DNA of 64,000 nucleotides from Candidatus Woesearchaeota archaeon (GCA_030651135.1 JAUSCS010000006.1:650160-714159); one strand, 5' to 3'; shown: positions 1,433-62,038, numbered from the stretch's first letter. Notes: generated by a model from the sequence alone, not told the origin. Numbers and translations are program-made.

Positions 1433-2260
1433 ATGATCATGCAAAAAAGAGGCCAGATAACTGCATTCATTATAATAGGGCTTGTTCTAGTTATTTCTCT
1501 GGTCATTGTTTTTTCAATATCGGGCGGCAGGCAGGCAAGCGAGCTGAAAAGCTCAGCTGCTGAGGCAACTGTTGGCAGCGTAGAAACAACCGTGATCCGC
1601 ACATATATTGAGAATTGCCTGAAGACTACATCTCAGGATGCTGTCTTTTCAAAAATAGGGCTGCACGGGGGATATTTAACAGAAGAAACAGACGTAAATT
1701 ATGCCCACTATCAGGACGACGAAATTACTTATTACGTTCCTTATTATGTTGATGGTGCAGCTATTTCTATTCCTGCGCTCAGCTATATTGAAGCCAAAGC
1801 AGGAGAATATGTTGCAGCAGAAGTTGACACGTGCATTGATTTCGATATGCTGAAAGATCTGGGATATAATATAACAAAAGAGGATGAAATAGAAGTGAGC
1901 TTTAAAATAAACAGGGAAGATATTTCTGTTTCAATGCAATATCTGATAACTGCAAAAAAGGACTCCTCTATGGCAGAATTGTCGCAGTTCAGTGTTGTGC
2001 TTCCGATAAGGCTTGGATTGTTGTATGAAAAAGCAAATGAAATTGTGAATGCGATAAAAGCTGCAGAGCAAATCCAGCCGCCTGAAAATTATGATATTTC
2101 GCAGCACTGCAGTATGTTCGACAATAACGTCAATGTTTATTTTAAGAACGGTGAAATAGTGCAGCTGGTCGACTTCAAAACTTATGATTACAAATATACA
2201 CATTCAACCATATACCAGTTCGCAATACAAAATGTCAGATTCACAGGTGAGTGCAGTTGA
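1433..2260 (+). CDS. hypothetical membrane-anchored protein (N-terminal TM helix)
   Basis: 275-aa ORF with an N-terminal hydrophobic helix; no recognisable motif. Overlaps the next ORF by 10 nt. Confidence 0.45.
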   Translation: MIMQKRGQITAFIIIGLVLVISLVIVFSISGGRQASELKSSAAEATVGSVETTVIRTYIENCLKTTSQDAVFSKIGLHGGYLTEETDVNYAHYQDDEITYYVPYYVDGAAISIPALSYIEAKAGEYVAAEVDTCIDFDMLKDLGYNITKEDEIEVSFKINREDISVSMQYLITAKKDSSMAELSQFSVVLPIRLGLLYEKANEIVNAIKAAEQIQPPENYDISQHCSMFDNNVNVYFKNGEIVQLVDFKTYDYKYTHSTIYQFAIQNVRFTGECS

Positions 2261-3180
2261 AAAAAAACAATGCAGTATTTTTTGTTTTGATGATTTTATT
2301 TATTTTTATTTCTGTAAAAATAGCCCAGGCTGTTCCAGATTCTGACCGCGATGGTGTTCCTGACGCAAATGACAAATGCCCAGGCACAGCTGTATTGATC
2401 GTTGACAGCAATGGCTGCTCCTGCGCCCAAAAAAACTGCCCCAGCTTGAACAATCCGTGCAGAAAAGACTGCGATGACAGCACTTATGAAGCGATATGCG
2501 GCAAGCCGATCGATTATGCGTCATGCGGCAGCGCAAGAACGTGCCCAGAGGATAAATGCGAAGGAGATCTTTTTGTTGATTATCCTGAAAGCAAGAATGA
2601 TTACTGCCTGAACGGAGACTGCTTTGCTTATTCATGCGCAGCATTAAGCAGAGCATATAATGCAGATTGCGCATCTGGAAAAAAACCCAACATTAATGAA
2701 AGCGTTAATAAAACTGTTACGAGCAGCATAATCAATTTAACCAATCTGACAAACATTACAAATCTAACAAGTGCGGCTATTGGGGGAGGCGTTGCAGAAA
2801 ATTTAGAAAATGCCAGCGGCCTTAATCTTTCAAACCAATCAGCAACAAGCAAAGATTCAGGATTTCCGTTTATTCCTTCTGGCGAAGAAAGAACTGCTGC
2901 CAGTCCAATAAAATTCAATCTCGATGCAAGAATAATCATTGTTGGCTTTATTTCAATAGCAATCTTAATCGCAATCATATCGGCAATTCTGATCATAGCA
3001 AGGCAGATTGCAGTATCAGAAGCTGTTTCAATAGAAAGAGATTTGAAGCTGAGAAGATACATATTGGCGGCATTGGCAGCAGGATTTACAATTGATCAGA
3101 TAAGAAGAAGGTTGAAAATGTCAAAGATCCCGGACAAGCATGTTAAGAGGGCGATGAGGGGGATAAGGTTAAAGCGCTAA
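2251..3180 (+). CDS. secreted Cys-rich surface protein with a thrombospondin-type-3-like Ca-binding motif, N-glycosylation sequon cluster and C-terminal TM anchor
   Basis: A GTG start gives a signal peptide MQLKKNNAVFFVLMILFIFISVKIAQA. It carries DSDRDGVPDANDKCPG, 16 Cys, NLTNLTNITNLTS sequons, a C-terminal hydrophobic helix and a basic tail. Confidence 0.5.
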   Translation: MQLKKNNAVFFVLMILFIFISVKIAQAVPDSDRDGVPDANDKCPGTAVLIVDSNGCSCAQKNCPSLNNPCRKDCDDSTYEAICGKPIDYASCGSARTCPEDKCEGDLFVDYPESKNDYCLNGDCFAYSCAALSRAYNADCASGKKPNINESVNKTVTSSIINLTNLTNITNLTSAAIGGGVAENLENASGLNLSNQSATSKDSGFPFIPSGEERTAASPIKFNLDARIIIVGFISIAILIAIISAILIIARQIAVSEAVSIERDLKLRRYILAALAAGFTIDQIRRRLKMSKIPDKHVKRAMRGIRLKR

Positions 3181-4835
3181 GAAAGATTTAAGCTATCATA
3201 GATTTTCTCAAATAAAACCCCTTTTCTAAAAACAACGGGTGAGCCAGAACTTAAATCTATTATTGTTCCGCCTTTTCTTTCAGGATTTTGATATTTTGCA
3301 GGTTTTGAATCATAAATTATGTAATCAACATTATTGACCATTTGTACGGGCAGTTCTTCAAATACCGCACAATTTCCTTCTCCAGTATTATTGGCTGAAG
3401 ACCCGACAATTAAAACCTTGTCTTTCGTTGATAATTGCGCTAATGCTTCAATAACATTTCCAGGATTAAACGGAACTGCAATTTTTCCATCCTGCACCGT
3501 ATGATTCAATACCCACTCCGATAATGCGCCATACCATTGTCTAGATCTTGGGTTGATAGGAACTAAAAAAGAACACAGGTATCCTGCTTCTTTAATTGAC
3601 CGGATATATTTTTCATATGTTGGTATGGGCACATAAGTGACATCATCAAATATTTCTTGGTTATTTCCTATTACCATGCAAGGCTTATATTCAGGCCTTC
3701 CTTTTAATTCATACATCTTCTTTATGGCTTCTTCAGAATTTCCCAATAGCACATAACCAACATCTGAAGGAACTAAAATTAACCCGCCTTCTTTAAGAAC
3801 AGCATATGCCCTTTTAACCTCACGATCGACATTAGCATCACCTAACTCGCTACTTGAATATTTGCCTTGTTTCAATAGCCTTTCCCTCCCTACGTTGTTA
3901 GGATCAAACAATTCATAAGTGGCTGTATTTTTTAAGATGCCTTTTTGATGAGTTCCGCTTAAAGTCGTGAAGGATGTTTTCCCGACTACTGCTTTTTCAC
4001 AAGGAGAATCTCTCCCCAATACAGTATAAACCAATTTGCTTGTTCCAAAGAGCAATTTGGGCTTTATATTTGTTGTAAAATTATAAAAATCAGGCCTTGC
4101 GATTGAAGCAGCAATTATCTCTTCTAATGCGCAATTACCGCTTCGTTCCCCAACACCATTGATAGTTGTCTGTATTTCATCAACTCCTGCTTTGATTGCT
4201 GCCAGAGTATTTGCAACTGCTAATCCCAAATCATTATGCATATGAACACTTATTTTTAAAGAATCTTTAAAATGAGCTTTTATTTTTTTTATCAGATCTC
4301 TAAATTCTTCTGGCTGCGAATGACCTAAAGTATCAGCTATAACGATGCTATTCGCTCCTGCCTTTTTGGATTCTTCACATAATTTAACAAAGAAGGCATA
4401 ATCTGCTCTTGTTGCGTCCTCGATCCCAATAGCCACATCCTGAAATCTTTGTTTTGCGTATTGTGCTGCTTTAATGGTGTTTTCAATAGTTTGCTCTTTT
4501 GACCAACCCAGTTTATTAATCAGAATATCTGAACCAACAGTTGCTAATTCTATTTGAGCATTTTTGTTGGATTTTATGGCATAGTGGGCTGCATCAATAT
4601 CGGATTGATGTAATCTTGAAAATACGCACAACTTTGCATTTAAGTTAAGGCGGCTTATTTCTTGTGCAGCAAGATACTCCATATAACACGCTGCAGGAAA
4701 CCCTGCCTCAATTGTGTTTATGCCCAATTTATCCAGAGCCTTGGCTACCTCTATTTTCTGGGCAATAGTCATCCTGTTATTTGCTCCTTGCTCTCCGTCC
4801 CTGAGTGTTGTGTCGAAAATATTTACCTGTTTCAT
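3177..4835 (-). CDS. fusion protein: N-terminal HMGL-like (LeuA/homocitrate-synthase-type) TIM-barrel domain plus C-terminal YrdC/Sua5 (threonylcarbamoyl-AMP synthase-like) domain
   Basis: The N-terminus MKQVNIFDTTLRDGEQ...HMHNDLGLAVANTLAA matches the HMGL-like family. The C-terminus EGGLILVPSDVGYVLLGNSEEAIKKMYELKGRPEYKPCMVI...GGTIIDLSSGSPVVFRKG matches the YrdC fold. A single uninterrupted 552-aa frame. Confidence 0.65.
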   Translation of the reverse strand: MKQVNIFDTTLRDGEQGANNRMTIAQKIEVAKALDKLGINTIEAGFPAACYMEYLAAQEISRLNLNAKLCVFSRLHQSDIDAAHYAIKSNKNAQIELATVGSDILINKLGWSKEQTIENTIKAAQYAKQRFQDVAIGIEDATRADYAFFVKLCEESKKAGANSIVIADTLGHSQPEEFRDLIKKIKAHFKDSLKISVHMHNDLGLAVANTLAAIKAGVDEIQTTINGVGERSGNCALEEIIAASIARPDFYNFTTNIKPKLLFGTSKLVYTVLGRDSPCEKAVVGKTSFTTLSGTHQKGILKNTATYELFDPNNVGRERLLKQGKYSSSELGDANVDREVKRAYAVLKEGGLILVPSDVGYVLLGNSEEAIKKMYELKGRPEYKPCMVIGNNQEIFDDVTYVPIPTYEKYIRSIKEAGYLCSFLVPINPRSRQWYGALSEWVLNHTVQDGKIAVPFNPGNVIEALAQLSTKDKVLIVGSSANNTGEGNCAVFEELPVQMVNNVDYIIYDSKPAKYQNPERKGGTIIDLSSGSPVVFRKGVLFEKIYDSLNLS

Positions 4836-4941
4836 ATAATTACCGTACAGTAATTACATTTATTAAAGTATATAAATCTTTGTTGTAAATATAATTACTA
4901 CAAATAGAAACATTTAAAAGGCCGAGAATATATCCTGCATT

Positions 4942-5700
4942 ATGAGAGAAGATGTATTAAAGTCGCTTGGGCTTTCAGACAAAGAAGCCAAGACTTACAT
5001 TGTGCTGCTGGAACTTGGCCCTAGCTTAGCCAGCGAAGTGTCAAAAAAGACAGACATTCCAAGAACATTTACATATGACATTTTAAACGAGCTGATCAAG
5101 AAAGGACTGGCTTCTTACTTCATAAAAGAGAACAGAAAATACTTCAGGGCAACAGATCCTGAAAACCTAAAGACAGTGATAGAGCAGCAGAAGAGAATTC
5201 AATTATCGCTAATTTCAGAGGCATTGCCTGAATTAAATGAAATAAAATTCAAAGAGGCAGAAGAAAAGCCAAAAGTTGAATTGTATGAAGGAAAAGAAGG
5301 AGTTAAGACGATCCTGAACGATATCCTCAATACAAGGCCCAAAGAGATTCTTGTATATGGCGGCGTAGGCCAGTCAAGGGTCTTATTCCCAGTATTTATG
5401 AAACACTGGCATAAAAGAAGGCAGGAGCTTAAAATAAAGTTTAAGGTGATCTATAACAAAACAGAAGAGGCAGAGGAGAGGTTTAAAAAATTCAAGGAGG
5501 ATTACAAATATTCTGAGGTGAAGTTTCTGCCGCTCTCTTTTTTCTCCCCAACTGCAATGATAGTTTATAAAAACAAGGTTGCCCTTACTGTGTGGACCAA
5601 ATATCCTTTTGGGATTTTGATACAAAGCAGCGAAATCTCAGAAAATTATAAAAAGAGATTTGAATATTTATGGGAAATGGCAAGTAAAATCATCAAATGA
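4942..5700 (+). CDS. TrmB-family transcriptional regulator
   Basis: N-terminal wHTH LGLSDKEAKTYIVLLELGPSLASEVSKKTDIPRTFTYDILNELIKKGL, typical of TrmB. Confidence 0.65.
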   Translation: MREDVLKSLGLSDKEAKTYIVLLELGPSLASEVSKKTDIPRTFTYDILNELIKKGLASYFIKENRKYFRATDPENLKTVIEQQKRIQLSLISEALPELNEIKFKEAEEKPKVELYEGKEGVKTILNDILNTRPKEILVYGGVGQSRVLFPVFMKHWHKRRQELKIKFKVIYNKTEEAEERFKKFKEDYKYSEVKFLPLSFFSPTAMIVYKNKVALTVWTKYPFGILIQSSEISENYKKRFEYLWEMASKIIK

Positions 5701-5708
5701 GATAAAAA

Positions 5709-7127
5709 ATGACCCAAAACTTTACAAGCGACATTGTGATCGGCCTTGAAATTCACGTTGAATTAAACACAAAAACAAAATTATTCTGCGGCTGCGCAAC
5801 AAAAGGCAATGAAGATCCGAATACAAGAACCTGCCCGACATGCCTGGGCCATCCAGGGAGCAAGCCAGTATTAAACCAGGATGCGCTTGAATTTGCATTG
5901 AAGCTCTGCATTGCCCTTGACGCAGATGTTTCGCCGGAAATTGTCTTTTCAAGAAAATCGTATTTCTATCCTGATATGTCAAAGAATTTTCAGATAACGC
6001 AGTATGAAGTTCCTCTTGCAAAAGACGGGAAATTAAAGCTGAAAGCCGGGAAAACAATCGGAATAGCAAAATTGCATCTTGAGGAAGATCCTGCTTCCCT
6101 TGTCCATATCGGGTCAATGCAACAGTCTCCTTTTGTTCTGGTTGATTACAACAGAAGCGGCAACCCTCTTGTTGAGGTTGTTACAAAGCCCGAGCTTGAA
6201 AGCCCGGAAGAAGCTCGCGACTTTATGAACCAGCTCATTTCAATATTGGCATATTTGAGGATTTTTGACATCAACAATGGGATAATAAAAGCAGATGCAA
6301 ATGTTTCAATAAGGGAGAGCGGCTATGTAAGGGCAGAAGTTAAGAATATAACTGGATTCAAGGACATTGAGAGAGCATTGAGTTATGAAGTTGAAAGGCA
6401 GAAGAAGGAAATCGAAGAAGGCAAAAAATTAAAGCAGGAGACAAGGGCATGGGATTCTGAAAAAGGAATTACATTTTTGCTGAGAACAAAAGAAACAGAA
6501 GAGGATTACGGCTACATAATTGAGCCTGATTTAACAAGGATCGAGATAAGCAGCGAACTAGTTGAAAGAATAAAAGAAGCAATGCCGGAATTGGCGCATG
6601 AAAAGGCGAAGCGTTTTGCCTCGCAATACAAGATAAAGAAAGAAGATGCTGAAGTGCTGGCTCAGGAATTTATGCTTGCAAAGCTTTATGAGCAGGTCGC
6701 AAAGGAAATTGACCCTCTGTTGGCTGCAAAATGGCTGAGAAGGGAATTGCCAAGGGTTCTGAATTATATCAAAAAGGATTTAGAGGAAGTTGAACTTGAT
6801 GAAACGCATATAATTGACCTGCTCGATCTGGTTGAGAAAAAGGTTATAACAGAACAGGTTGCTCAAAGATTATTGGAAAAATTAGTTGAATCTCCTTTTG
6901 ATGTAAAAAAATATGTTAAAGATCAAGGCATGGAAGCTGTTTCTGACAAAAAAGAGCTTGAAAAGTTCTGCATTGAAGCTATTGCAGAGAATCCAAAGGC
7001 AGTTGAAGACTATAAAAAAGGCAATGAAAAGGCGCTGAACTTCATTGTCGGATCAGTCATGAAGAAAACAAAAGGGAAGGCAACTCCTGTTGAAGTTAAT
7101 GAGATATTGAAGAAGCTGGTAAAATAA
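5709..7127 (+). CDS. gatB: Asp/Glu-tRNA amidotransferase subunit B
   Basis: GatB N-terminus IGLEIHVELNTKTKLFCGC...CPTCLGHPGSKP and a GatB/YqeY C-terminal domain; 472 aa. Confidence 0.85.
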   Translation: MTQNFTSDIVIGLEIHVELNTKTKLFCGCATKGNEDPNTRTCPTCLGHPGSKPVLNQDALEFALKLCIALDADVSPEIVFSRKSYFYPDMSKNFQITQYEVPLAKDGKLKLKAGKTIGIAKLHLEEDPASLVHIGSMQQSPFVLVDYNRSGNPLVEVVTKPELESPEEARDFMNQLISILAYLRIFDINNGIIKADANVSIRESGYVRAEVKNITGFKDIERALSYEVERQKKEIEEGKKLKQETRAWDSEKGITFLLRTKETEEDYGYIIEPDLTRIEISSELVERIKEAMPELAHEKAKRFASQYKIKKEDAEVLAQEFMLAKLYEQVAKEIDPLLAAKWLRRELPRVLNYIKKDLEEVELDETHIIDLLDLVEKKVITEQVAQRLLEKLVESPFDVKKYVKDQGMEAVSDKKELEKFCIEAIAENPKAVEDYKKGNEKALNFIVGSVMKKTKGKATPVEVNEILKKLVK

Positions 7128-7217
7128 GGCGCTTTTTCATAATGAAATTTCTACAAAAGAGATTAATCGTTATCTAAAACCACAATCTTTATATATTAAT
7201 ACGTATTTTTACGTAAT

Positions 7218-8033
7218 ATGGTAGAATTGATCAGCAAAATAAGCAAAGGAAGCAGGATGGATCAGGTGTATATCCCGAAAAACAGGTCAGATTTTGCCAT
7301 AGGCAGCTATGTTGTGATAAAGCCGCTGGAAACTATGCCTGAAGAAGTGCTTAAGCCTTTTTTTTATAATATTAAATATCTGGAGCCGATAAAACTTAAA
7401 ATAGTGGAAGAGGTCTTTAAAAATATAGGAATGCTTGTCAAATTCGATAACATAATAATAACAGGCTCTTTTTTGGAAGAAGGGTTTAGATTTAATGATA
7501 TAGACATCATACTTGTCAGCGAAAATAAAATCGATGCAAAACTTATCGAAGCTTCTTTAAAGGAGAAAATTGGAATTGGATTTCATGTAAGTGCTATGAG
7601 CAACAAAGCTTTATTAAAGGGCATTTCCACAGATCCCTTATATCGCGCCATGCTGACTAAATGCGTTTCCAGTAAAAGGCTGATTTATAAAATACGCCCT
7701 GAAATAAACTATAAATTGCTAGACTTGCATCTTCTGAAAAGCAAGCCATTAATAGAAAACTTCGAGTTTTTAACAGGCGACGAAAAGTACAAAATAACAA
7801 GAAACCTTGTTGCCATACGCTTATTTATCGATAAAAAAGAAATAACCAAAAATAAAATAGATTCGGCTATTGATAACATTTTTGGCAGCAAAACAGTCCA
7901 GAAATTAAAAGAAAACATTGTTTTAAAAGAAGATTTTTTGGCTAAGTACAAGAAGCTTTATAAAGGTACTTTGAATAAGATTTTAGAGGGTATAAAGAAT
8001 GAGCCAAAACAAAAGGAGACTGAAGTAATTTAA
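7218..8033 (+). CDS. hypothetical protein, possible minimal nucleotidyltransferase fold
   Basis: GSFLEEGFRFNDIDIILVS resembles the GS...D.D nucleotidyltransferase motif; this is weak. Confidence 0.35.
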   Translation: MVELISKISKGSRMDQVYIPKNRSDFAIGSYVVIKPLETMPEEVLKPFFYNIKYLEPIKLKIVEEVFKNIGMLVKFDNIIITGSFLEEGFRFNDIDIILVSENKIDAKLIEASLKEKIGIGFHVSAMSNKALLKGISTDPLYRAMLTKCVSSKRLIYKIRPEINYKLLDLHLLKSKPLIENFEFLTGDEKYKITRNLVAIRLFIDKKEITKNKIDSAIDNIFGSKTVQKLKENIVLKEDFLAKYKKLYKGTLNKILEGIKNEPKQKETEVI

Positions 8034-8037
8034 TAAA

Positions 8038-8787
8038 ATGATAATCGAATGGCTTTACAGTCTGATAAGCGTACTGATCATCAGCTTGATCTCCCTTATA
8101 GGCGTTTTTACATTTTTCATAAAAGAAAAAACACTGCAGCAGATATTGCTGTTTTTGGTTTCTTTTTCAACAGGCGCATTATTGGGCGATACATTTATTC
8201 ATTTGCTGCCGGAAGTTGTCAGTGAATATGGCTTCAGCATTGTTGTTTCGCTTTATATCCTATGCGGAATGCTTGTATTTTTTATACTTGAAAAATTCCT
8301 TCACTGGAGGCATTGCCACATCCCGACATCAAAGCAGCATCCGCATCCATTGGCTCTTATTAATTTAGTTGGCGATGGCCTGCACAACTTTATAGACGGC
8401 ATGGTGATTGCCGGCTCTTATCTTGTTTCTGTTCCGCTCGGAATTGCGACAACGCTTGCTGTTTTGTTCCATGAAATACCCCAGGAAATGGGAGATTTCG
8501 GGATTTTGCTGCATGCCGGGCTTTCAAAGAAAAAAGCGCTGTTCTTCAATTTTTTATCTGCATTGATCTCTGTTTTTGGAGCAATTTTAATTTTAGCGAT
8601 AGGTGGCGCAATAAAAGATCTTAATCTTTTCATCCTGCCATTTACAGCCGGAGGATTTATTTACATTGCAGGATCTGATCTTATACCGGAGCTGCACAAA
8701 GAAGTGATACCATTAAAGTCTTTAATCCAGCTCATTAGTTTGGTGTTTGGGATTTTGGTGATGATAGTTTTGTTGTTTCTAGGTTAA
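8038..8787 (+). CDS. zupT: ZIP-family divalent metal transporter (ZupT-like)
   Basis: Multi-TM protein carrying the ZIP signature HEIPQEMGDFGILL. Confidence 0.8.
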   Translation: MIIEWLYSLISVLIISLISLIGVFTFFIKEKTLQQILLFLVSFSTGALLGDTFIHLLPEVVSEYGFSIVVSLYILCGMLVFFILEKFLHWRHCHIPTSKQHPHPLALINLVGDGLHNFIDGMVIAGSYLVSVPLGIATTLAVLFHEIPQEMGDFGILLHAGLSKKKALFFNFLSALISVFGAILILAIGGAIKDLNLFILPFTAGGFIYIAGSDLIPELHKEVIPLKSLIQLISLVFGILVMIVLLFLG

Positions 8788-9995
8788 ATCTCAATCATCT
8801 TGCTGATTTCTTCCTTTATCCTCTTCTCAAAATCCGCTATTTTTTCGCCTTCGCCTTTTTCAGCACCAAGAACTTTCATAAGGCTTTTTATCAGGCTTTT
8901 TTCTTTCTCCAAAGACAGTCCTTCAACCTTTATCTGGCCTAAATGCTCTTTAATCAGTTTTTCCTCTGTTTCCTCGACTGATGTCACTTCAACCTTTGTT
9001 TCCTCAAATTCCCTTGATGAAAGCTTGTTTGTGTTTTTCATCACAAAGTATGCTGATTTTTCATAAAGCTTTTCAAAAATTATTTTAAAATCAATGCTTG
9101 ACGGCTTTCCTCTCTCTAGCATTCCCTCAAGCCGTATTGTTACGATTGTGTTGTTGAATTCCTTGTTTTTAATCTCTTTCAAAAGCATTTCATTTATTTC
9201 TTCAGGTGTTTTATTGTCGCAGTTGATTGTCAGCGATAAAACAGGGCATATTTGTATCGGCTCGTAGCTTAATTTATCATCTTCAACAATGTAGAAGCCT
9301 CCATTATGCAGTTTTTCTAATTCAAGGAAGCTATTGGGAAATAATGGGCCAGGATAAGCTATCAATCCATAATCCTTTTCTTTTTTTTCAATTACCTCAT
9401 GGACATGGCCCCCCGCATAATAGTTGAAGTTTTTCGGCAATAATGAAAAGGGGATTGATTCCATGGCTTCCAGATCTTCTGTTTTCAATTCAGTCAGTGC
9501 AGTATGAAATACAAATATCTTGTAACCCTGCTCTTTTTCAAGGGCGGCCCTGTCAAGCAGTTCGTAATAGCCCTTTTCCAAAGTTCCTTTTTTTCCCAGC
9601 AAGCCTGTAATCTTTGCCCCGGTTTTTGGATCAACTGTAAACTTTAATCTGAGCTTTCCATCTTTTTCTTCCCCTCTTGCAGCATTTATGAACAGCCCGG
9701 CTTCTTCCAAAACATCAAGCATTGTTTTTCCTGAAGGTGAGAAATCATGGCTGCCTGCTATGATGTAAACCGGAATGTTTTTGTTTTTTATTTCCTTTAA
9801 CTTTTTAACAGCTGTTTTTAAATTATCAATCGCAGGCAGTGATGTGTTGAAGAGATCGCCGGAGATTATAATGAAGTCAACATTCCGTTCAATGCAGAGG
9901 TCCATTGCCTTTATGAATGCATTTACAGAAAGATCTCTTAATTTCGGCTCTCTCCATGATCCTATGTGCATGTCTGCTAGATGGGCAAATTTCAT
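8784..9995 (-). CDS. mre11: Mre11-type DNA double-strand-break repair nuclease (calcineurin-like phosphoesterase)
   Basis: Phosphoesterase motifs LADMHIG, ISGDLFN, IAGSHDF, FVFHTA and GGHVHE. Confidence 0.7.
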   Translation of the reverse strand: MKFAHLADMHIGSWREPKLRDLSVNAFIKAMDLCIERNVDFIIISGDLFNTSLPAIDNLKTAVKKLKEIKNKNIPVYIIAGSHDFSPSGKTMLDVLEEAGLFINAARGEEKDGKLRLKFTVDPKTGAKITGLLGKKGTLEKGYYELLDRAALEKEQGYKIFVFHTALTELKTEDLEAMESIPFSLLPKNFNYYAGGHVHEVIEKKEKDYGLIAYPGPLFPNSFLELEKLHNGGFYIVEDDKLSYEPIQICPVLSLTINCDNKTPEEINEMLLKEIKNKEFNNTIVTIRLEGMLERGKPSSIDFKIIFEKLYEKSAYFVMKNTNKLSSREFEETKVEVTSVEETEEKLIKEHLGQIKVEGLSLEKEKSLIKSLMKVLGAEKGEGEKIADFEKRIKEEISKMIEI

Positions 9996-10612
9996 CTTAG
10001 GTATTTTCTTATTTCATCAACACTAAATTGTCCCGCTGTTGTTTTTTTATCTTTGCTTAATGCAGCAAACGTCAGATAATTTTTTGGATGAATTCTTGTT
10101 CCTCTTCCTAATTCACCAATGCTGATTCCTATTATCGGCTTTTTTGCAAATCCAATTAACTGCATCATTCTTTTTACATCATCATATGTGTTTGCTTTAA
10201 CAGCTAACTTTGCAATGTCTGCGCCCTTAGCTGTAATTCTTTTATAAATTTCTCCGAGATTTTCAGGTGTTTTATTAATATCATGATATGCCACAATTAA
10301 TTTTGTCTTATCTCTTCTTAACAGATGAAAATAATTCAGCTCAACAGTAACATAATCCACGCCAAGATCGCATGCTTTCTGCAAATAAGCTGCTCTCTCA
10401 TTCTCGCTGCCTGAAAACCTTCCGCCTTCTTTCTTAGGCATACAGGTTAAAATAACTGGCTTTTCCGAACATTTTAAAAGTTCTTCTAAATCCTGTTTTT
10501 TTAAATAATCAAGCCTGATTTCAACAATATCTGCCTTTTCTGAAGCAATTTTTATACTTTTTATAGCTTCCTTAATTGTTTCTTCTCCAACAGATACAGC
10601 AACTAAGGTCAT
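9992..10612 (-). CDS. aroD: 3-dehydroquinate dehydratase type I
   Basis: EIRLDYL...[11 protein letters not shown]...GVDYVTVEL...GADIAKLAV matches the AroD family pattern. Its stop overlaps the mre11 start. Confidence 0.75.
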
Positions 10613-12138
10613 TGCATATTCACTCCGCTAAAATCATTCTTTATCTTGCTTTTATTGATTAATGTTTCCTTTACAACATCTTCAAAAAGCGGGATCTTTA
10701 CGGGAGTTGCGAATTTTGTGAAGTTGCTCGTTATCAGTGCCTCGCCTTTGTCAAGCGATGCTATATTCCTATCATCATCACTCAGATCCTGCGATGCAGA
10801 CTCAATTACAGCAAGCCTTTCGCTTTTCATCTCTATGCCGAGGATTATTTTTGTGTTTATATTGGCAAGAATTTCTTTTGGAATCAATGATGGAAGCTGT
10901 GTTATCGCAACCAAGCCTACTTTAAACTTTCTTCCTTCCCTTGCAATTGTTGAAAATATATTCGGGCCTTTTTCAAGCACATCCCTGCCAAGAACGCGAG
11001 GTGCTTCTTCCAGAATAATTGATATTATCGGCTTATCCTTAAGCTCGCCAGTCCTTTTATAGTTCTTGTATTTACTGAATATTTCAGACGCTATCATGCT
11101 GCCAATTAATATCTCAACTGCGCTGTCAAAATCTGAAGTGTCAACTATAACCGTCTTTGATTCTTCAAGCTCTTTTACAATGTCTTTTATTGTTGCTGAC
11201 CCGGCGTTCAATTCAAAGATCCCGGATGTTGTCAGCTGCACTCCGTCCCATTCAAGATCCAGCAGATTCATCAACTTTCTTTTCACAACTCCTACAGTCT
11301 GCTCTGCAAATCTTCCTTCAACCAGTTTCTCAAGTATTATTGCTTCAATCCAGCTGCCGCCGTATTTCTTGTTGAACATATCAAGGCAGTCTTTTTGCGG
11401 GTCGCTCCAGTCCACAACGCCGTTAAGGTGATGCGGCCTTATTGTTTCAAGATTTATCTTCAATGTCCTGCATCCTGGCGGAGCATCTTTTGAAGTGTAA
11501 TAAACAATTTTGTCTTTTGAAGGATGGTCCTTTAATCCAAGCTTATTTCTGCCGTAATACTCGTCGTGAGGGTCTAAAACCAGAATTCCGCAGTAATCCT
11601 TGTCAGCTGCATTCCACAGCATGATGCTTGTCAAATTAGATTTTCCCCTGCCCGTCGTAGCTGGAATTAAGATATGATGAGCGAATATTTCAGATCCATC
11701 AAGAACAATATCAACATCAACAATCTTTGATCCGCTCCTCAATTTTCCGATATACAACGGATTTTTCGGGATGCTGATAAACCCCAAGTCAGATTTTTCA
11801 ACAGCTCTTGTATTTGAAAAGAAATTCGGCAGCTCTTTGCACAAGCCGTGCTTATTATCTTTTATTGTCAATAAATTTTTAAGAAAAGCTACCCTGTAAT
11901 TCCTTATGTTTGCGTCCATAAATTCAGCGCTTGCATTTTCTTCAAGGTTCATGCCCGAAATAAGCTCAAGATTCTGCTGCGAGATCTGTGAGCTGTAATT
12001 AAGATCATAAACCTGGAGCAATACCTTGCCGCAGTCTATGTCGCCGATTAATAACTCCCCTATTTCAAGGCCAGCTCCAGCTTTCTCCCGCATTATTACA
12101 TTATTGAAGCTGCCCCCGATAACCATGCCTTTGATCAT
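10609..12138 (-). CDS. herA: HerA-like FtsK/HerA-superfamily ATPase (DUF87)
   Basis: N-terminal barrel region followed by Walker [17 protein letters not shown] and [12 protein letters not shown]; 509 aa. Confidence 0.6.
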
Positions 12139-12226
12139 AGAAGGAGTTATTTCTCTGTTGTTTTTATAGTTTTTGCTTTAAAATATGATTTAGAAATTAA
12201 AAAAATAAAAAAAAGAAACAGAAAAT

Positions 12227-12454
12227 TTATCTTCCTCTCGCCATCTTTGCGGCTGATACATTGCCTTTCTTGTCGATGAAGTACAAGTATCCTTTCTTTT
12301 TCGTGATGCTGCATTTTGCAACAACTTCAATCTTGGCCTTGCCCTTTTTCTTTCCGCGGGCCATCTTGGCTCTTGCTACGTTTCCTTTCTTGTCCACAAA
12401 ATACAGATATCCTTTTTCTTTCTTTACTCCAACTTTTGCTATTTGTTCTGCCAT
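12227..12454 (-). CDS. 75-aa basic protein with an internal tandem duplication (KGYLYF[VI]DKKGNV[AS]xAKMARG x2)
   Basis: The two halves are near-identical at protein level. A strong SD (AAAGGAGGTA) sits 8 nt upstream of the ATG. Confidence 0.5.
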   Translation of the reverse strand: MAEQIAKVGVKKEKGYLYFVDKKGNVARAKMARGKKKGKAKIEVVAKCSITKKKGYLYFIDKKGNVSAAKMARGR

Positions 12455-12573
12455 TTATACCTACCTCCTTTTATTTTATGGTTAATAAGACACACCCCCT
12501 ATGATGTTAGTCTTATGTTTTAAATAATAAGCCAGCTTATTTAAATACTTTTCGATTTTACGTCTATAAATCA

Positions 12574-13281
12574 TTATTTTCTCGTCTCGATCTTTATTAT
12601 TTTGTTGATCTCTTTTGAGGAGACGGCGCAGCCCCTGACTTTCAACCCCCACAATACAGCATCCAGAAGGGTTTTTTCAGGTTCAGGAATTGTTTTTATG
12701 ATGTATTTATCCAAAAATCCCAATTCATAAGCAACAGCAATCAATTCAACAGACCTTATTATTTTTAGATTTTCAGTTTCTTTTCTGAATTTTGAAAGGG
12801 CTTCTTTGTTTATTTCTATCTTCGTGTTTAGTTTGTTTTTCAGCAGTTTTGCCAATCTTTCAGGATTTTCTATCAAAAGCCTGACTGTTCTCTCATCTAT
12901 TATTAAGGCTTCAGCATCAAGAACAATGGTTGCTGCTATTGACATAGCATCGCCCAAATGGACAATATTGATGTAATTGTTTTGCGCAGTGAAGCAATGA
13001 TTGGCCAGATCCAGCAGCTCCATTCCCTTGTTTTTTATCTTTTCATTTTCGACGACATTCAGTACACCTTTGTTTATCAGATCCAGCACCTGTATTGCTT
13101 CAAACTCGAATCTTTTTGTGTTTAAAGGCCGGTCAACAAGCTCGTATTTTATCATATTTGCTATATAAAATTCACCTTTAAAATTTTCTTTCAGCTTTTC
13201 CATGATCCACAATAAGCTGTTAACGCTTAAGCTTATTATCGGGCCGCTGTCAAAAACCAATGATCTCATATCAAGCACCAA
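12574..13281 (-). CDS. hypothetical protein, possible PIN-like nuclease fold
   Basis: N-terminus VFDSGPIISL plus scattered D/E residues; this is weak. Confidence 0.3.
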   Translation of the reverse strand: MVLDMRSLVFDSGPIISLSVNSLLWIMEKLKENFKGEFYIANMIKYELVDRPLNTKRFEFEAIQVLDLINKGVLNVVENEKIKNKGMELLDLANHCFTAQNNYINIVHLGDAMSIAATIVLDAEALIIDERTVRLLIENPERLAKLLKNKLNTKIEINKEALSKFRKETENLKIIRSVELIAVAYELGFLDKYIIKTIPEPEKTLLDAVLWGLKVRGCAVSSKEINKIIKIETRK

Positions 13282-13810
13282 AAATATTTCTTGCCAATTC
13301 GAGCCTCTTTTTTATATCAGTTATTTTGCCTTCTTCTGTTATGCTGGTCTTTCCTATATAGCTCATCAGCTCCCACTGGGATATACCCAATAGCTCAGAA
13401 GCCTGGGCAATAGAAAGTCCATGCTCATACAGTTTGCTGCCTTTCTTTACCTCAGCCTGCTTTATAACCTCATCTATATACTGTTTTAATTTAACATCAA
13501 CCTTGGAAATTAACTCGAGGATATTCTTAATGGCATCCTGGTATTCTTTTGTTTTATCTTTAATTAAAAGGTCATAAGCATCTTTTAATTTTTTCACTAT
13601 TTCTGCATCAATGCTGCCTGTTCTCTCCATTATTTTTGACATGGCGTATATTATAATTGCAATCGAGATGGAATCCCTGTCCTGGAATATGGATGCATTA
13701 TGTATTGTATGGTTGCTTATCTTTTTAAGATCAACAAAATTTTTTTGCCCTATAAGAATAAGTCCGTCATCAATGATCTTAAGTATGTCTTTTTTGACTA
13801 TCTTATTCAT
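13271..13810 (-). CDS. hypothetical protein with C-terminal HTH
   Basis: C-terminus LSIAQASELLGISQWELMSYIGK is HTH-like. Overlaps the downstream ORF (ATGA). Confidence 0.4.
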   Translation of the reverse strand: MNKIVKKDILKIIDDGLILIGQKNFVDLKKISNHTIHNASIFQDRDSISIAIIIYAMSKIMERTGSIDAEIVKKLKDAYDLLIKDKTKEYQDAIKNILELISKVDVKLKQYIDEVIKQAEVKKGSKLYEHGLSIAQASELLGISQWELMSYIGKTSITEEGKITDIKKRLELARNIFGA

Positions 13811-14368: not shown

Positions 14369-15628
14369 ATGAGGGGTGTAAGATATTTAATTTTGTTGAG
14401 TGTAGTTCTACTGTTAGCTGGCTGCTATAAATATCCAGATTATTTTCCTGGATTGGTTCCTGCTTCGAATGGAACAGGCATTATAGCGCCTTTAAATGCA
14501 ACGCCGCCAGTAAGTGAAGATGTAACCGCAAACATAACTCCTCAGCCTGAAGAGCCCCCGCAGGAGCTGGCAGCATTGACAACTATTTCAGTCAGCGAAG
14601 GCGATTTAGTGAAGCTAAAGCTTGTTGCAGCTGATCCAGACGGCGATGCCCTAACATATACCTATGGCCCGCCATTGAACGAGAAGGGAGAATGGCAGAC
14701 AAAATTGGGTGATATGGGGGAATACAGGGTGACAATAACAGTTTCTGATGGAACAACAGGCGTTTCAAAAGACATCACAATAATTGTAAAGAAAACAAAC
14801 AAGGCTCCAGCAATTACGTCATTCAAGCCTTCTGATTTGATAGCGAACAGCGATGAAGGAAAAACAACTGAATTTAAAGCAGAAGCCACTGACCCGAATA
14901 AGGATGCATTGACATATTTATGGAAAGTTGATGATAAAGAAGTGTCAACTAAGGACTTTTACCTGTATGATCTAAGCTATGACTCTGCAGGCCAGCACAA
15001 AGTAACTGTCGTCATTTCAGATGGCGCTTTGGAAGCATCGAAGGAATGGATAGTTAATGCTGCAAATATCAACAGGCCGCCAGTAATTCAGGACATGGAT
15101 CTGATAAAAGTGAAGGCAAGCGAAACAGTTGAAGTAAGGCCTGTTGTGGTTGACCCAGACGGCGACAAGGTTGATATTACAATATCTGCTCCTTTGACAA
15201 CAGGAACGTGGAAAACCAGCTACAGGGATGCAGGAACTTACACAATAACAGTATCTGCTTCAGACGGCAAGGATATTGCAACAAAGACAGTTGCAATTGA
15301 TGTTATTGAAAGCAACAAGCTGCCTGTGCTGAATAAGATAGATGACATTTCAGCAAATGAAGGTGATATTGTGAAAATCAACGTAGATGCAGCTGATTCA
15401 GATGGCGATGAATTGACAATAACAGTAAGCGGATGGGTGACTTCAACAACTTATCAAACAACATATGATGACGCGTATCCGAAAGGATGCAATGCAAAAG
15501 GATGCACAGCAACATACAATGCAAGGGTTACAGTAAGCGACGGCAAGGAGAGTGTCAGCCAGGATCTGAAGATCTCGGTGAAAGATGTCAACAGGCCGCC
15601 TGTAATCGGCGACATTACGCAAAGTTAA
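14369..15628 (+). CDS. secreted protein with four tandem Ig-like/cadherin-like repeat domains (AADPDGDxLTY motif)
   Basis: Signal peptide with LLAGC, then about 90-aa repeats each with a DPDGD...TY...VSDG core joined by NRPPVI linkers. Confidence 0.6.
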   Translation: MRGVRYLILLSVVLLLAGCYKYPDYFPGLVPASNGTGIIAPLNATPPVSEDVTANITPQPEEPPQELAALTTISVSEGDLVKLKLVAADPDGDALTYTYGPPLNEKGEWQTKLGDMGEYRVTITVSDGTTGVSKDITIIVKKTNKAPAITSFKPSDLIANSDEGKTTEFKAEATDPNKDALTYLWKVDDKEVSTKDFYLYDLSYDSAGQHKVTVVISDGALEASKEWIVNAANINRPPVIQDMDLIKVKASETVEVRPVVVDPDGDKVDITISAPLTTGTWKTSYRDAGTYTITVSASDGKDIATKTVAIDVIESNKLPVLNKIDDISANEGDIVKINVDAADSDGDELTITVSGWVTSTTYQTTYDDAYPKGCNAKGCTATYNARVTVSDGKESVSQDLKISVKDVNRPPVIGDITQS

Positions 15629-15668
15629 TTTTATTTTTTTTATTTATTTTTATGGGGGTAAGGCGCTA

Positions 15669-17084
15669 ATGAAGAAATTACTTATTGCAATAGTTTTAAT
15701 GTTAGTATTATCTTTTTCTGTATTCGCTGTTACAAATCTTACAGTTGATGAAGGAAAGCTGCTGAAAGTCAAAGTAAATACTTATGATCCTGACAAGGAC
15801 AAGCTGACAATAAACTATGCATCACCTTTAAACTCGAAAGGAGAATGGAGGCCGGATTTTAATCAGTCAGGGGATTACAAAAGCTTTGTTTCTGTGTCTG
15901 ACGGCGAGTTTGTCATCTCAGATGAGCTAAACATAAAAGTCATAGATATTGACAGGCCGCCAATATTTAATCCAGTCAGGATTGCTGCTGTGAATGAGAC
16001 GCAGGAAGTTTCGTTTGATGCAAGCGCTTACGATCTTGACGGTGATTTTATTACAATAAGCGCAGTAAGCCTGCCGGAAGGCGCAATTTTCTCCAATAAT
16101 CATTTTTCTATGCCTACAAGCTATGACGCAGTCAAAAAGAACTGGTTTTCCAGATTGATAGATAATCTGCCGTTTGTTAAAATAAGCAAAACATTTGATG
16201 TAAAATTAAAGGCAATCGGCAGGACAGCATATTCTGAAAAGAATTTCAAAGTAAAGGTTTATGATGTCAACAGGCAGCCTGTTTTGGCTGCTCTTGCGCC
16301 GATAACAGTCAATGAAGGCGAAGAGGTTGTAATTAATCCCTCTGCAGCAGATCCTGACAATGATAAAATAAAATACAGCTACAGCGGATGGATGGATTCA
16401 AATAAAAAAATAACCGGCTATGATGATGCCGGAGTGCAGATTATAACTGTAAAGGCATCTGACGGATTTTTATCTGATTCAAAAGATGTTTCTGTAATTG
16501 TGAACAATGTAAACAGAGCTCCTGTATTTGATCCGATAAAGAATGCTGCTGTTAAGGAAGGCGATGAGATTATTATCGATCTTAAAGCAGCTGACCCAGA
16601 TGGCGATGCCCTGATATTTTCCTCTCTAAATATTCCCTATAATTCAACCTTGACTGAGAACAGGTTTATCTACACGCCAAGTTATGACGTTGTAACGCAC
16701 GAAGATGCCAAAACAAGGCAGAAGAAATTCAATATTACATTCACGGCAAGAGACAGCAGCGGCCTTAATGCAACGCAAAATTTCACATTAACAGTCAAGG
16801 ATTTTAATAGGGCGCCTGTTATAAATGATTCTGAGCCTAGCGGAGAAAAGATAAAAGCATATGTCGGCGCAAAGGTAAGGTTCAGCGTAAATGCCTCAGA
16901 CCCTGATGATGACAATCTGACTTATTCATGGCATTTTGGATTTCTGGATACGCGCAAAGGAAAAGACGCAATAACGATGAAGTTCACATCATCAGGGACA
17001 AAGAAGATCGCAGTGACAGTTTCAGACGGCCAGACAACAGCGAAGAAAGAATGGATTGTTGAAGTGCTGTCGAAGAAGAAATAA
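15669..17084 (+). CDS. secreted protein with tandem Ig-like/cadherin-like repeat domains (paralog of the upstream gene)
   Basis: Signal peptide; repeats with ADPDGD/ADPDND, VSDG and NR(A/P)PV linkers. Confidence 0.6.
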   Translation: MKKLLIAIVLMLVLSFSVFAVTNLTVDEGKLLKVKVNTYDPDKDKLTINYASPLNSKGEWRPDFNQSGDYKSFVSVSDGEFVISDELNIKVIDIDRPPIFNPVRIAAVNETQEVSFDASAYDLDGDFITISAVSLPEGAIFSNNHFSMPTSYDAVKKNWFSRLIDNLPFVKISKTFDVKLKAIGRTAYSEKNFKVKVYDVNRQPVLAALAPITVNEGEEVVINPSAADPDNDKIKYSYSGWMDSNKKITGYDDAGVQIITVKASDGFLSDSKDVSVIVNNVNRAPVFDPIKNAAVKEGDEIIIDLKAADPDGDALIFSSLNIPYNSTLTENRFIYTPSYDVVTHEDAKTRQKKFNITFTARDSSGLNATQNFTLTVKDFNRAPVINDSEPSGEKIKAYVGAKVRFSVNASDPDDDNLTYSWHFGFLDTRKGKDAITMKFTSSGTKKIAVTVSDGQTTAKKEWIVEVLSKKK

Positions 17085-17703: not shown

Positions 17704-18014
17704 TTGTCAAATCCCCTGACTTTTCCATTGTAAACTTTAACTAATTCATTATAAAGCCCTTTAATAACATCCGAATTGCTTTCAATGAACCCATCGGCAA
17801 TATGCTCGTTGAATTTAAACTTTTTGCCGTATGCTGTTCCAATATAGACTTTTTCAAGCTTCAACATAAGATAAGGCGGGCAAAAATTTCTGCCAAGCCC
17901 ATTTTCAAACTCTACATCAAACCTTCTGCATACATCACTTACTTGTATTATTTTGTCGATAGATATATTATCACCTTTCTCGATAAGCTCCTTTATGCCA
18001 GGCAGCCCAATCAT
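17679..18014 (-). CDS. hypothetical protein
   Basis: 111-aa ORF sharing short overlaps with both neighbours; no motif. Confidence 0.3.
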   Translation of the reverse strand: MIGLPGIKELIEKGDNISIDKIIQVSDVCRRFDVEFENGLGRNFCPPYLMLKLEKVYIGTAYGKKFKFNEHIADGFIESNSDVIKGLYNELVKVYNGKVRGFDKWKKQLNI

Positions 18015-19273: not shown

Positions 19274-19375
19274 GAGAAACAGGAAAACGCTTTTATATAA
19301 AAACGTTCCTACAAAAACTATATAAACAACCCCATATTCAACTATCATAATTCAACTAATCGGAGGTCAAACAAA

Positions 19376-45143: not shown

Positions 45144-45629
45144 ATGAATAGAATAAAACAAAGCCTGAATGGAATAAACTGCGTATTAGGCAATTGGGTC
45201 TATTTGATGATTTTTATAGTTTTTACCATGGTCTTTTTATCAATCTACATTTTTGCATGGAACTTTATTTTGCTGTCAAACTTTTATGTAAGAATAGATC
45301 TATGGACGCCATTGAATTTGTTGTTTTTAATAACTATTTCAATTTTATCGGGTATGATTTTGGCATTAAATATTTATGTTCTTAAATCAAACTGGTCTTT
45401 ACATAAAAAAGCCCATGGTTATTTTGCGCTAATACCTGCTTTGTTCACATCAGTCTGCCCAACATGCGCCCCTCTGCTTTTGTCTTTTTCAAGCACGACA
45501 ATCGGCATTGGCATGCTGATATCCGGCTTTAATATTTTTGTTAATGCATTTATTGTTCTGTTACTTGGTTTGATCTTGATAAACATATCATCAAATTTAA
45601 ACAGTTGCAAAATAAAGGCTAAAAAATGA
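45144..45629 (+). CDS. integral membrane protein with intramembrane CPTC motif; stop overlaps the copA start
   Basis: [14 protein letters not shown]; 4 TM helices. Confidence 0.4.
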
Positions 45630-50579: not shown

Positions 50580-50580
50580 G

Positions 50581-59337: not shown

Positions 59338-59343
59338 TATGAA

Positions 59344-60243: not shown

Positions 60244-60257
60244 AAAAAACTAAAAAA

Positions 60258-61043: not shown

Positions 61044-61044
61044 A

Positions 61045-62037: not shown

Positions 62038-62038
62038 G

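Follow-up and report, generated by a model that had tools for sequence, protein, structure and literature searches.

Within a 64-kb stretch of DNA (hereafter the window) belonging to a 731-kb contig from a metagenome-assembled genome (MAG) of Candidatus Woesearchaeota, a single gene encodes a protein in which the catalytic part of a LeuA-type enzyme, i.e. of the isopropylmalate synthase (IPMS) and homocitrate synthase (HCS) kind, is joined to a YrdC-like domain. At NCBI, this fusion protein, called P0001 in the following, bears the product name 'Sua5/YciO/YrdC/YwlC family protein' and nothing more specific. Both the domain architecture and the uncharacterised YrdC-like subfamily it involves, which comes with a reproducible partner, are new. 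Coordinates are gathered in Table 1.

Table 1. Position of the fusion gene, its domains and motifs, the adjacent features and the bacterial operon L017 (nucleotide positions refer to the window, those of L017 to that locus; ORF, open reading frame; pLDDT, predicted local distance difference test)
Feature	Nucleotides	Strand	Residues	Remarks
Whole fusion gene	3177..4835	-	552 aa	ATG start, TAG stop, single unbroken ORF
HMGL-like DRE-TIM barrel	4035..4826	-	4-267	Pfam PF00682, E 1.2e-71
Barrel residues R12/D13 (RDGEQ)	4788-4802	-	12, 13	Invariant in 3 full-length fusions
Substrate-pocket segment QIELATVGS	4530..4556	-	94-102	Alignment to 3rmj; canonical LeuA 'RIHxFIATS', His to Glu
Barrel residue E139 (EDA)	4413-4421	-	139	Invariant in 3 full-length fusions
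Barrel residue T169 (ADT)	4329-4337	-	169	Invariant in 3 full-length fusions
Barrel residues H198/H200 (HMH)	4236-4244	-	198, 200	Invariant in 3 full-length fusions
HCS_D2 subdomain I	3858..3989	-	283-326	Pfam E 4.9e-10; His296 (GTHQ, nt 3945-3956) catalytic-type
Inter-domain linker	3801..3857	-	327-345	Flexible over ~10-19 aa; AlphaFold2 pLDDT <50 at 327-333 only
YrdC-fold domain, uncharacterised subfamily	3219..3800	-	346-539	Pfam E 1.3e-15
KGRPEYKP	3681..3704	-	378-385	K378-x-R380 half of ATP-binding tetrad; invariant in 25 subfamily members
SSANNTGEGN	3372..3401	-		S480-x-N482 half of tetrad and subfamily 'SGxGN' signature; (nearly) invariant; SGxGN in 3l7v too
FRKG	3219..3230	-		R537, equivalent of Pa-Sua5 R195; invariant in 25 members; alignment to 6f87
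Divergent intergenic region	4836..4941			106 bp; AT-rich TATA-like elements, short palindrome TTGTA-N11-TACAA
TrmB-family regulator, divergent	4942..5700	+		Upstream of fusion gene
L017 operon (also L018-L020)	3205-13747			High-GC bacterial; LeuA-like, YrdC-like, Amidohydro_2, CADD-like oxidase, second YrdC paralog
L017 operon, onward				MFS, LeuC, unknown, LeuD, then ferredoxin-like, SBP; PEBP precedes LeuA-like

The two halves of the fusion protein

The HMGL-like match (PF00682, 241.7 bits against a Pfam cutoff of 29) is followed by subdomain I of HCS_D2 (PF22617, 40.1 bits against 27), which covers profile positions 1-45 of 82 only and is cut off at the 'GKHSGR' motif, aligned here with QGKYSSS. 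Past residues 327-333, predicted to be disordered, the first helix of the YrdC domain starts at about residue 333 and the Sua5_yciO_yrdC match is complete (profile positions 2-178 of 178, 57.8 bits against 25.1); none of these scores could arise by chance. The LeuA regulatory domain PF08502, carried by most of the ~8000 LeuA-type homologs found, gave no Pfam match in the fusion, and the YrdC-like module replaces both this domain and subdomain II of LeuA. The initial annotation had recognised a LeuA/HCS-type TIM barrel in the first ~330 residues, a YrdC fold in the last ~200 and the replacement of the regulatory domain; all three are borne out, with subdomain II replaced as well, and the motifs it had quoted are all present (TTLRDGEQ at residues 9-16, HMH at 198-200, KGRPEYKP as tabulated and IDLSSG at 526-531). 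It had also proposed structure prediction of the domain interface: AlphaFold2 (AF2) yields two compact, confidently folded domains on a short flexible tether (mean pLDDT of 92.2 for the full chain, 96.5 for the C-domain modelled alone), but with a predicted template modelling score (pTM) of 0.67 their mutual orientation is not fixed and no tunnel or interface can be claimed. Searching the PDB with the full model returned relatives of the N-domain only, and no two-domain match.

The fusion is genuine. The window and an independent Logan assembly (L001, run SRR13727527) agree at 100% over 14,160 bp, the whole gene included, the ORF is continuous, the GC content is uniform (0.378 in the N half, 0.358 in the C half and 0.383 over the window), the short linker is kept between P0001 and its relative P0002 (74% identity) and further fused clusters come from other samples, so that a frameshift or chimeric join merging two neighbouring genes during assembly or gene calling, which the initial annotation had envisaged and to which the MAG origin and the split adjacent versions known in other organisms would lend some credit, has a practically negligible probability.

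The reaction typical of LeuA-type enzymes is the condensation of acetyl-CoA with a 2-oxoacid, an alkylmalyl-CoA being the intermediate. By sequence and fold, the solved proteins nearest to the N-domain are the truncated IPMS of Neisseria and Cytophaga, the plant methylthioalkylmalate (MAM) synthase and homocitrate synthases. The metal ligands, the 2-oxoacid-binding Arg and Thr and the catalytic Glu of the LeuA core are present in the sequence, as is the GxH His of subdomain I (HCS_D2), H296 being invariant by alignment in all three full-length fusions. On the basis of structural work on LeuA/HCS enzymes, MtIPMS and LiCMS, we take R12, D13, T169, H198 and H200 to be involved in metal and 2-oxoacid binding, and E139 and H296 in catalysis. 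With these residues invariant, the N-domain looks competent for Claisen chemistry between acetyl-CoA and a 2-oxoacid.

Among the NCBIfam models, those of IPMS rank first (334 bits), then archaeal LEU1, NifV and LysS, citramalate synthase coming much lower. All of these scores lie below the respective equivalog cutoffs, i.e. 334 against 532 bits and 314 against 599 for IPMS (TIGR00973 and NF002086, with PF08502 absent), 265 against 463 and 230 against 414 for homocitrate synthase (NifV TIGR02660 and LysS TIGR02146) and 164 against 450 for citramalate synthase (TIGR00977), because the fusion has no counterpart of their C-terminal third. The N half is a LeuA-family catalytic core that belongs to no defined equivalog. 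The position matched by eye to the Arg by which HCS binds the distal carboxylate of 2-oxoglutarate is Ala135, a weak indication.

Regarding the substrate pocket, the QIE signature of P0001 is common to P0002, P0004, P0005, P0008, P0011, P0015 and the LeuA-like gene of the bacterial locus L017, and it is absent from the third full-length fusion, P0003, which keeps the canonical His; besides, P0001 and P0002 have 'IADTxG' where LeuA has 'IPDTVG'. As the pocket His is replaced by Glu in P0001/P0002 but retained in P0003, the substrate is not inferable from the pocket. P0004, P0005, P0008, P0011 and P0015 form a clade of LeuA-like proteins of ~385-405 residues devoid of regulatory domains. Of these, the nearest standalone homologs of the N-domain, P0004 and P0011, have aconitase or thiamine pyrophosphate-enzyme neighbours and no YrdC gene on the available contigs. 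P0004, the nearest one at 50% identity, lies in an operon (L010, 1570-7143) in the order TauD/CsiD dioxygenase, LeuA-like, aconitase, fatty-acid-desaturase-like and zinc alcohol dehydrogenase, which is another uncharacterised pathway around a LeuA-like enzyme without regulatory domain.

As for the C-domain, Foldseek places its model at template modelling (TM) scores of 0.71-0.78 to T. maritima TsaC2, Pyrococcus and Sulfolobus Sua5, 3l7v and YciO, at ~20% identity, then at 0.67 to the YrdC-like domain of HypF (3vth) and at ~0.5 to TobZ/GdmN; at the profile level, the best match is 3l7v (E 1.6e-15), then Sua5/TsaC2, YciO being weak. In 25 diverse relatives, the sole invariant columns are K-x-R, S-x-N and R-x-G (K378, R380, S480, N482, R537 and G539) and a G-N pair is nearly so, which gives the signature SSANxSGxGN, also found in 3l7v. 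K-x-R/S-x-N is the ATP-binding catalytic tetrad of TsaC/Sua5, where R195 binds the substrate carboxylate (PMC10321239). The fusion has the four residues of this tetrad and, in a hidden Markov model (HMM) alignment of the threonine-binding positions to 6f87, T33 is conservatively replaced by S357, R195 is kept as R537 and S181 is lost, its equivalent (G523) being Gly in the archaeal fusions.

None of the characterised YrdC families accommodates the domain. Against TIGR00057, the TsaC equivalog with a cutoff of 123.2 bits, the full protein scores 55.4 bits, the C-domain alone 59.0 and its closest standalone relatives 18-60, and NF007919 gives 24.6 bits against 175. Two-domain Sua5 proteins carry a SUA5 domain at the C-terminus, along with a gating loop that contains PGM...HY; in the fusion, Pfam finds no PF03481 match and the protein ends 13 residues past the YrdC domain. 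A Kae1-like (ASKHA) domain, as in HypF/TobZ, is absent from the Pfam scan, the partner being HMGL-like. YciO is recognised by a conserved basic surface patch and an rnm neighbourhood (PMC12506659); the profile matches 1k7j/1kk9 with an E-value of only 0.003, behind Sua5 and 3l7v, and no rnm-like gene is among the window neighbours of the fusion.

In a neighbour-joining tree without bootstraps, the subfamily stands apart from canonical TsaC. It is provisionally named 'SSANxSGxGN' (P0121-P0201 and relatives) and delimited by an E-value below about 1e-20 to the A2 model, the motif, ~215-245 residues per domain and a position apart from TsaC, all of which the fusion C-domain displays. An exhaustive HMMER scan of 1.84 billion protein representatives retrieved 225 clusters below 1e-10, of which 41 fell below 1e-30, and almost all of them are standalone proteins of 215-245 residues, metagenomic and with uninformative names; word-indexed homolog searches with the C-domain alone or the 25-sequence alignment gave almost no useful matches, and a scan of GTDB genomes with a very narrow pattern gave two standalone members from Polyangiaceae MAGs as well as two ordinary TsaC genes. 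The automatic names 'L-threonylcarbamoyladenylate synthase' or 'Sua5/YciO/YrdC/YwlC' given to members of the subfamily carry a risk of systematic mis-annotation. Judged by sequence, the subfamily is distinct from TsaC, Sua5, YciO, HypF and TobZ; the YrdC fold initially assigned is upheld but not a status of TsaC/Sua5 ortholog. In our reading, the C-domain probably has an adenylate-forming active site that is intact and a substrate pocket that has changed.

Recurrence of the pairing

Fusions of a LeuA-type and a YrdC-like module occur in three clusters only among the representatives scanned, namely P0001/P0002, P0003 and P0158. P0002 (57% identity) and P0003 (40%), both from other samples, are full-length with the same three domains, and in these two clusters the YrdC-like domain is C-terminal on a LeuA-type protein of ~550 residues. 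Between the full-length fusions, the N and C halves are 56/57.5%, 42/39% and 43/40% identical; they diverge in step, as expected of one protein under joint purifying selection. The fused clusters do not represent one inherited fusion, because the halves belong to different clades and the junctions differ. The N-domain of P0003 is 51% identical to standalone P0006/P0007 and 42% to P0001, and its C-domain 51% identical to standalone P0122/P0125 and ~40% to P0001. P0158, a fragment from base 3 of a 68%-GC contig, runs from an HCS_D2 tail through subdomain II helices to YrdC, with a C-domain 54% identical to standalone P0142; its junction keeps subdomain II, whereas the archaeal junction cuts at GKHSGR.

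Besides these fusions, the two modules are found as adjacent bacterial genes in three unrelated contexts. A gene for a 407-residue LeuA-like protein (HMGL and HCS_D2) precedes that of P0142 by 16 nt in L017 as well as in L018-L020, which come from other samples, the order being the same as in the fusion, i.e. LeuA-like then YrdC-like; in L022, P0125 abuts an HMGL-like gene, and in L006, a member of the P0122 cluster is followed by an HMGL-like gene 171 nt later. An HMGL-like gene is thus the immediate neighbour in three of the six standalone lineages examined, including all those closest to the fusion C-domains. The two modules are evolutionarily coupled, through no fewer than two or three fusions of independent origin and through three adjacencies, which makes a classical Rosetta-stone and gene-neighbourhood signal for a functional partnership. 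The initial annotation knew of no described pairing, and the HMGL, HCS_D2 and YrdC architecture has indeed no mention in the searchable literature, where reviews of TsaC-domain fusions name Sua5, HypF, TobZ and TsaN only; the pairing is extremely rare but not unique to this archaeon, since it recurs as independent fusions and adjacent genes.

The L017 operon (Table 1) looks like a specialised-metabolite cluster, still uncharacterised. Of its two YrdC paralogs, the one next to LeuA is a subfamily member and the second, at 130 bits, clears the TsaC cutoff of 123, so that the two are not redundant. Two LuxI-type autoinducer synthases are located upstream of this operon. An identification with the mangotoxin mbo operon was rejected, as mboA-E has neither LeuA nor YrdC genes and encodes a heme-oxygenase-like diiron oxidase (HDO), a redox partner, ATP-grasp ligases and a deiminase (PMC13185094). 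In L006 (5999-6406) and L022 (2949-3356), both low-GC contigs, an HbpS-like gene (PF03928) stands beside the split YrdC-like/HMGL-like pair, and L022 also encodes, at 1930-2820 (-), a very divergent YrdC-like protein of 296 residues with no sequence match in the PDB.

The subfamily has further fusion partners. In proteins of ~880 residues (P0202, P0205, P0207 and P0214, the last at 9277-11907 in L007/L008), of which P0210 and P0280 are truncated forms, the YrdC-like domain is N-terminal to an HpcH/CitE-like lyase, HpcH_HpaI being detected in P0202, P0205 and P0210, and Pfam finds a MaoC-type (mesaconyl-CoA-hydratase-like) region after the lyase in P0202. Their sources are contigs on which the neighbours are of the type-IX-secretion type, plus a Chloroflexota MAG. 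The lyase part is best matched by RipC/Ccl, the citramalyl-CoA lyase of itaconate degradation, and by CitE, with citrate lyase beta, malyl-CoA lyases and CLYBL as PDB relatives, and the tail is weakly like RipB/Ich, both scores being far below the cutoffs (111 bits against 375 for RipC, 32 against 340 for RipB). CitE-like enzymes share with the HMGL family the chemistry interconverting a beta-hydroxyacyl-CoA with acetyl-CoA and a 2-oxoacid, with thioesterase/synthase side activities, and the itaconate route proceeds by CoA activation, then hydratase, then lyase (PMC6689899). By analogy, the YrdC-like module looks as if it fills the slot of the activation step in these tri-domain proteins, which would make them an undescribed all-in-one enzyme for activation, hydration and lysis. 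In addition, a CADD-family (TIGR04305-like) heme-oxygenase-like di-metal oxidase is fused to the subfamily domain in P0134 (446 residues) and is the neighbour of a subfamily gene in L005 (2089-2769) and L017 (6918-7667).

Genomic surroundings of the fusion gene

The divergent TrmB-family regulator upstream of the fusion gene has an ortholog, 44% identical over its full length, in the same divergent arrangement at the locus of the P0003 fusion (L003), so that the pair of regulator and fusion is conserved. Palindromes are present at both loci but differ in sequence between the window and L003, and no shared operator sequence was found. In L003, a gene for a B12-binding radical SAM protein (2504-3937) overlaps the stop codon of the fusion by 4 nt, suggesting translational coupling; as its homolog is absent from the window, it was rejected as a conserved partner and the archaeal enzyme appears self-contained. 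Downstream of the fusion gene in the window lies a convergent membrane protein gene, and the other neighbours (GatB, ZIP transporter, Mre11-like, AroD and HerA-like) are unrelated. Three of the latter form an overlapping co-directional string at 8784-12138 (-), in which AroD, a type I 3-dehydroquinate dehydratase (9992-10612), is oddly placed between two DNA-repair-type genes, a Mre11-like metallophosphoesterase (8784-9995) and a DUF87/HerA-like ATPase (10609-12138).

A separate canonical LeuA/CimA had been noticed at 55819 and proves to be a full-length citramalate synthase with its regulatory domain (55819-57360, +; 541 bits to TIGR00977 against 450), so that this DPANN archaeon has two LeuA-family enzymes. 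No LeuB, LeuC or LeuD gene was seen in the annotated parts of the window. A lactate/malate dehydrogenase (Ldh_1_N and Ldh_1_C) is encoded at 50560-51516 (+) and a D-2-hydroxyacid/glyoxylate-reductase-type dehydrogenase at 61045-62037; together with CimA, they suggest an active 2-oxo/2-hydroxy-acid metabolism in a small genome. The latter dehydrogenase, along with a surface-protein-like ORF, interrupts a sulfhydrogenase or anaerobic sulfite reductase-like cluster at 58399-62815 (+), comprising AsrA-like, AsrB (293 bits against 288.6) and HydD/ShyD-like delta subunit genes. Elsewhere in the window are found two tandem secreted or surface proteins with Big_9, PKD and cadherin-like repeats (14369-17084, +), a P-type heavy-metal ATPase bearing a pair of HMA domains at its N-terminus (45626-48052, +) and two proteins with no Pfam match at E<1e-4, of 876 residues (23826-26456, -) and 445 residues (18011-19348, -).

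Proposed function and comparison with known systems

The reading we favour, to which we give about an even chance, is that of a bifunctional enzyme coupling Claisen chemistry to an ATP-dependent step in which the same metabolite is adenylated on a carboxyl group. The LeuA-type barrel would convert acetyl-CoA and a 2-oxoacid into a 2-alkylmalate via the alkylmalyl-CoA intermediate, or catalyse the reverse cleavage, and the YrdC-fold domain would spend ATP on activating a metabolite of this short pathway by adenylation of a carboxyl (or N-carboxy) group, the likeliest candidate being the carboxylate of the alkylmalate product or of the substrate. The resulting acyl-AMP would then be handed to CoA, an amine or an internal hydroxyl, by analogy with HypF and TobZ, where the YrdC-like domain passes its adenylate to the fused partner domain. 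The domain identities, the intact motifs, the fusion and the recurrent coupling are observed; from them we infer a catalytic C-domain, a single metabolite for both domains and the kind of compound this metabolite could be.

Several lines of evidence are consistent with this proposal. Both domains are complete and confidently folded, and the invariant columns of the 25 subfamily members coincide with the catalytic set defined for TsaC/Sua5. The equal divergence of the two halves, the repeated fusion and adjacency of the modules and the non-redundant YrdC paralogs of L017 speak for it as well. The subfamily pairs with two families that are not homologous but have (alkyl)malyl-CoA chemistry in common, which is the main argument for a common intermediate of that type, and carboxylate activation is the missing step in the context of CitE/HMGL-type acetyl-CoA/2-oxoacid pathways. 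To our knowledge, however, the YrdC-fold enzymes characterised so far adenylate carbamates or N-carboxy-amino acids and never plain carboxylates, and we know of no YrdC fold with CoA-ligase activity. Other points likewise weigh against the proposal: the activity of the subfamily members is a prediction from sequence, the substrate pocket of the N-domain is not diagnostic, the geometry between the domains is not confidently predicted by AF2, the window offers no pathway partners beside the fusion gene, the neighbours being the TrmB regulator, GatB and the membrane protein, and the other three of the six standalone lineages (L004, L005 and L013/L014) have no HMGL-like neighbour on the available contig.

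A bolder version, tentative and on the unlikely side, would make of the SSANxSGxGN proteins a new carboxylate-activating class, either acyl-AMP-forming, CoA-ligase-like or lactone/amide-forming, repeatedly paired with LeuA- and CitE-type enzymes, the fusion being an ATP-driven reversible machine between (alkyl)malate on the one side and acyl-CoA plus 2-oxoacid on the other. If true, ATP-citrate lyase would have a functional analogue made of wholly different folds, and an ordinary carboxylic acid would for the first time be the substrate of a YrdC-fold enzyme. Only nine structural classes are known to form adenylates, the YrdC fold among them, and its chemistry, as far as we know, has been confined to carbamoyl and N-carboxy groups (t6A, [NiFe]-hydrogenase maturation and antibiotic carbamoylation); should the subfamily activate ordinary carboxylic acids, it would widen the chemistry of a fold from this small set and define an ATP-coupled alkylmalate step. 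That a catalytically intact and distinct subfamily is repeatedly fused to enzymes of the (alkyl)malate synthase or lyase type, or found beside them, implies that the YrdC fold has a reaction not yet described and that 2-oxoacid/alkylmalate metabolism has an ATP-coupled step not yet described either. The fused archaeal protein offers a compact, single-polypeptide entry point to this chemistry.

The position of the YrdC-like module, exactly where LeuA subdomain II and the regulatory domain would be, would also suit a swap of regulatory domains, in which a non-catalytic module, or an allosteric sensor binding a nucleotide or an amino acid, replaces LeuA_dimer and tunes an ordinary alkylmalate synthase of the citramalate, isopropylmalate or homocitrate type. 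YrdC folds do bind ATP and an amino acid (PMC10321239), split pairs are compatible with such a role since regulatory subunits may be adjacent separate genes, and the canonical regulated CimA is encoded separately in the window. The equal evolutionary rate of the two halves is neutral on this question, but a tetrad and an Arg as the sole invariant positions over a very diverged subfamily exceed the usual needs of ligand binding, and the module is also fused to CitE-like/MaoC and CADD-type oxidase domains, where feedback in the style of LeuA makes little sense; a regulatory swap seems to us rather unlikely.

With the KRSN tetrad and the R195 equivalent in place, S357 as a conservative substitute for T33, TIGR00057 as the best named HMM match and no other gene of the YrdC family within the 64-kb window, the C-domain might instead be the TsaC of this reduced-genome archaeon, making threonylcarbamoyl-AMP for tRNA t6A, in which case the LeuA-like enzyme fused to it would be a functionally incidental partner. 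TsaC/Sua5 is near-universal, yet some DPANN lineages have no detectable copy (PMC10321239). The score far under the TIGR00057 cutoff, the placement away from canonical TsaC in the bootstrap-free tree, the Gly in place of the Thr-binding S181 in the archaeal fusions and the LeuA-like association recurring in bacteria, in one case with a TsaC-scoring paralog in the same operon, make this quite improbable.

Since all known YrdC-fold chemistry yields adenylates derived from CO2 or carbamate (PMC6594144), the domain could also form a carboxy- or carbamoyl-adenylate from bicarbonate or carbamate and ATP, for the LeuA-type domain to use as an enolate electrophile in a biotin-independent carboxylation or carbamoylation of acetyl-CoA or a 2-oxoacid; the HMGL superfamily does include carboxyltransferase domains, and pyruvate carboxylase, oxaloacetate decarboxylase and transcarboxylase 5S are among the weak matches. 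The N-domain is however clearly of the LeuA/HCS type (334 bits for IPMS against ~50-70 for the carboxyltransferase models), it retains the 2-oxoacid-binding Arg and the HCS_D2 His, and the reaction has no precedent, which renders this purely speculative scheme very doubtful.

Compared with known systems, the bifunctional enzyme proposed here would combine elements of several. The N-terminal 326 residues are 35-45% identical to IPMS (3rmj, 3eeg) and MAM synthase (6e1j), and the fusion has in common with the LeuA family the TIM barrel, RDGEQ, EDA, xDT, HxH and the subdomain-I GxH His; it differs by the QIELATVGS pocket, by 'ADT' for 'PDT' and by the lack of subdomain II and LeuA_dimer, the YrdC-fold domain being carried instead. 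With TsaC/Sua5, the C-domain shares the fold (TM 0.71-0.75), the KxR/SxN tetrad, the R195 equivalent and a T/S at T33, whereas the identity is ~20%, the SUA5 domain is absent, the SSANxSGxGN signature is its own, the S181 equivalent is Gly and the genes associated with the subfamily are LeuA-like, CitE-like and CADD-like rather than those of t6A. Its best solved relative, the uncharacterised YrdC-like Smu.1377c of Streptococcus mutans (3l7v; E 1.6e-15, TM 0.78), shares SGxGN but is a standalone protein of 295 residues with an extra C-terminal region.

Closer in layout are HypF and TobZ/NodU/GdmN, in which a YrdC-like adenylating domain is likewise covalently joined to the consumer of the adenylate. 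Where HypF/TobZ have a Kae1-like ASKHA domain as partner, the fusion has a LeuA-type TIM barrel; acylphosphatase and Zn-finger domains are lacking, and the substrate is presumably not carbamoyl phosphate; all characterised YrdC-fold enzymes form an acyl(carbamoyl)-adenylate, which HypF and TobZ hand to the fused partner (PMC6594144). At the level of pathway logic, the activation of a carboxylate ahead of CoA-dependent carbon-carbon chemistry would parallel that of ATP-citrate lyase and of the itaconate/citramalyl-CoA pathway, whose successive members are a CoA transferase, the hydratase Ich/RipB and the lyase Ccl/RipC.

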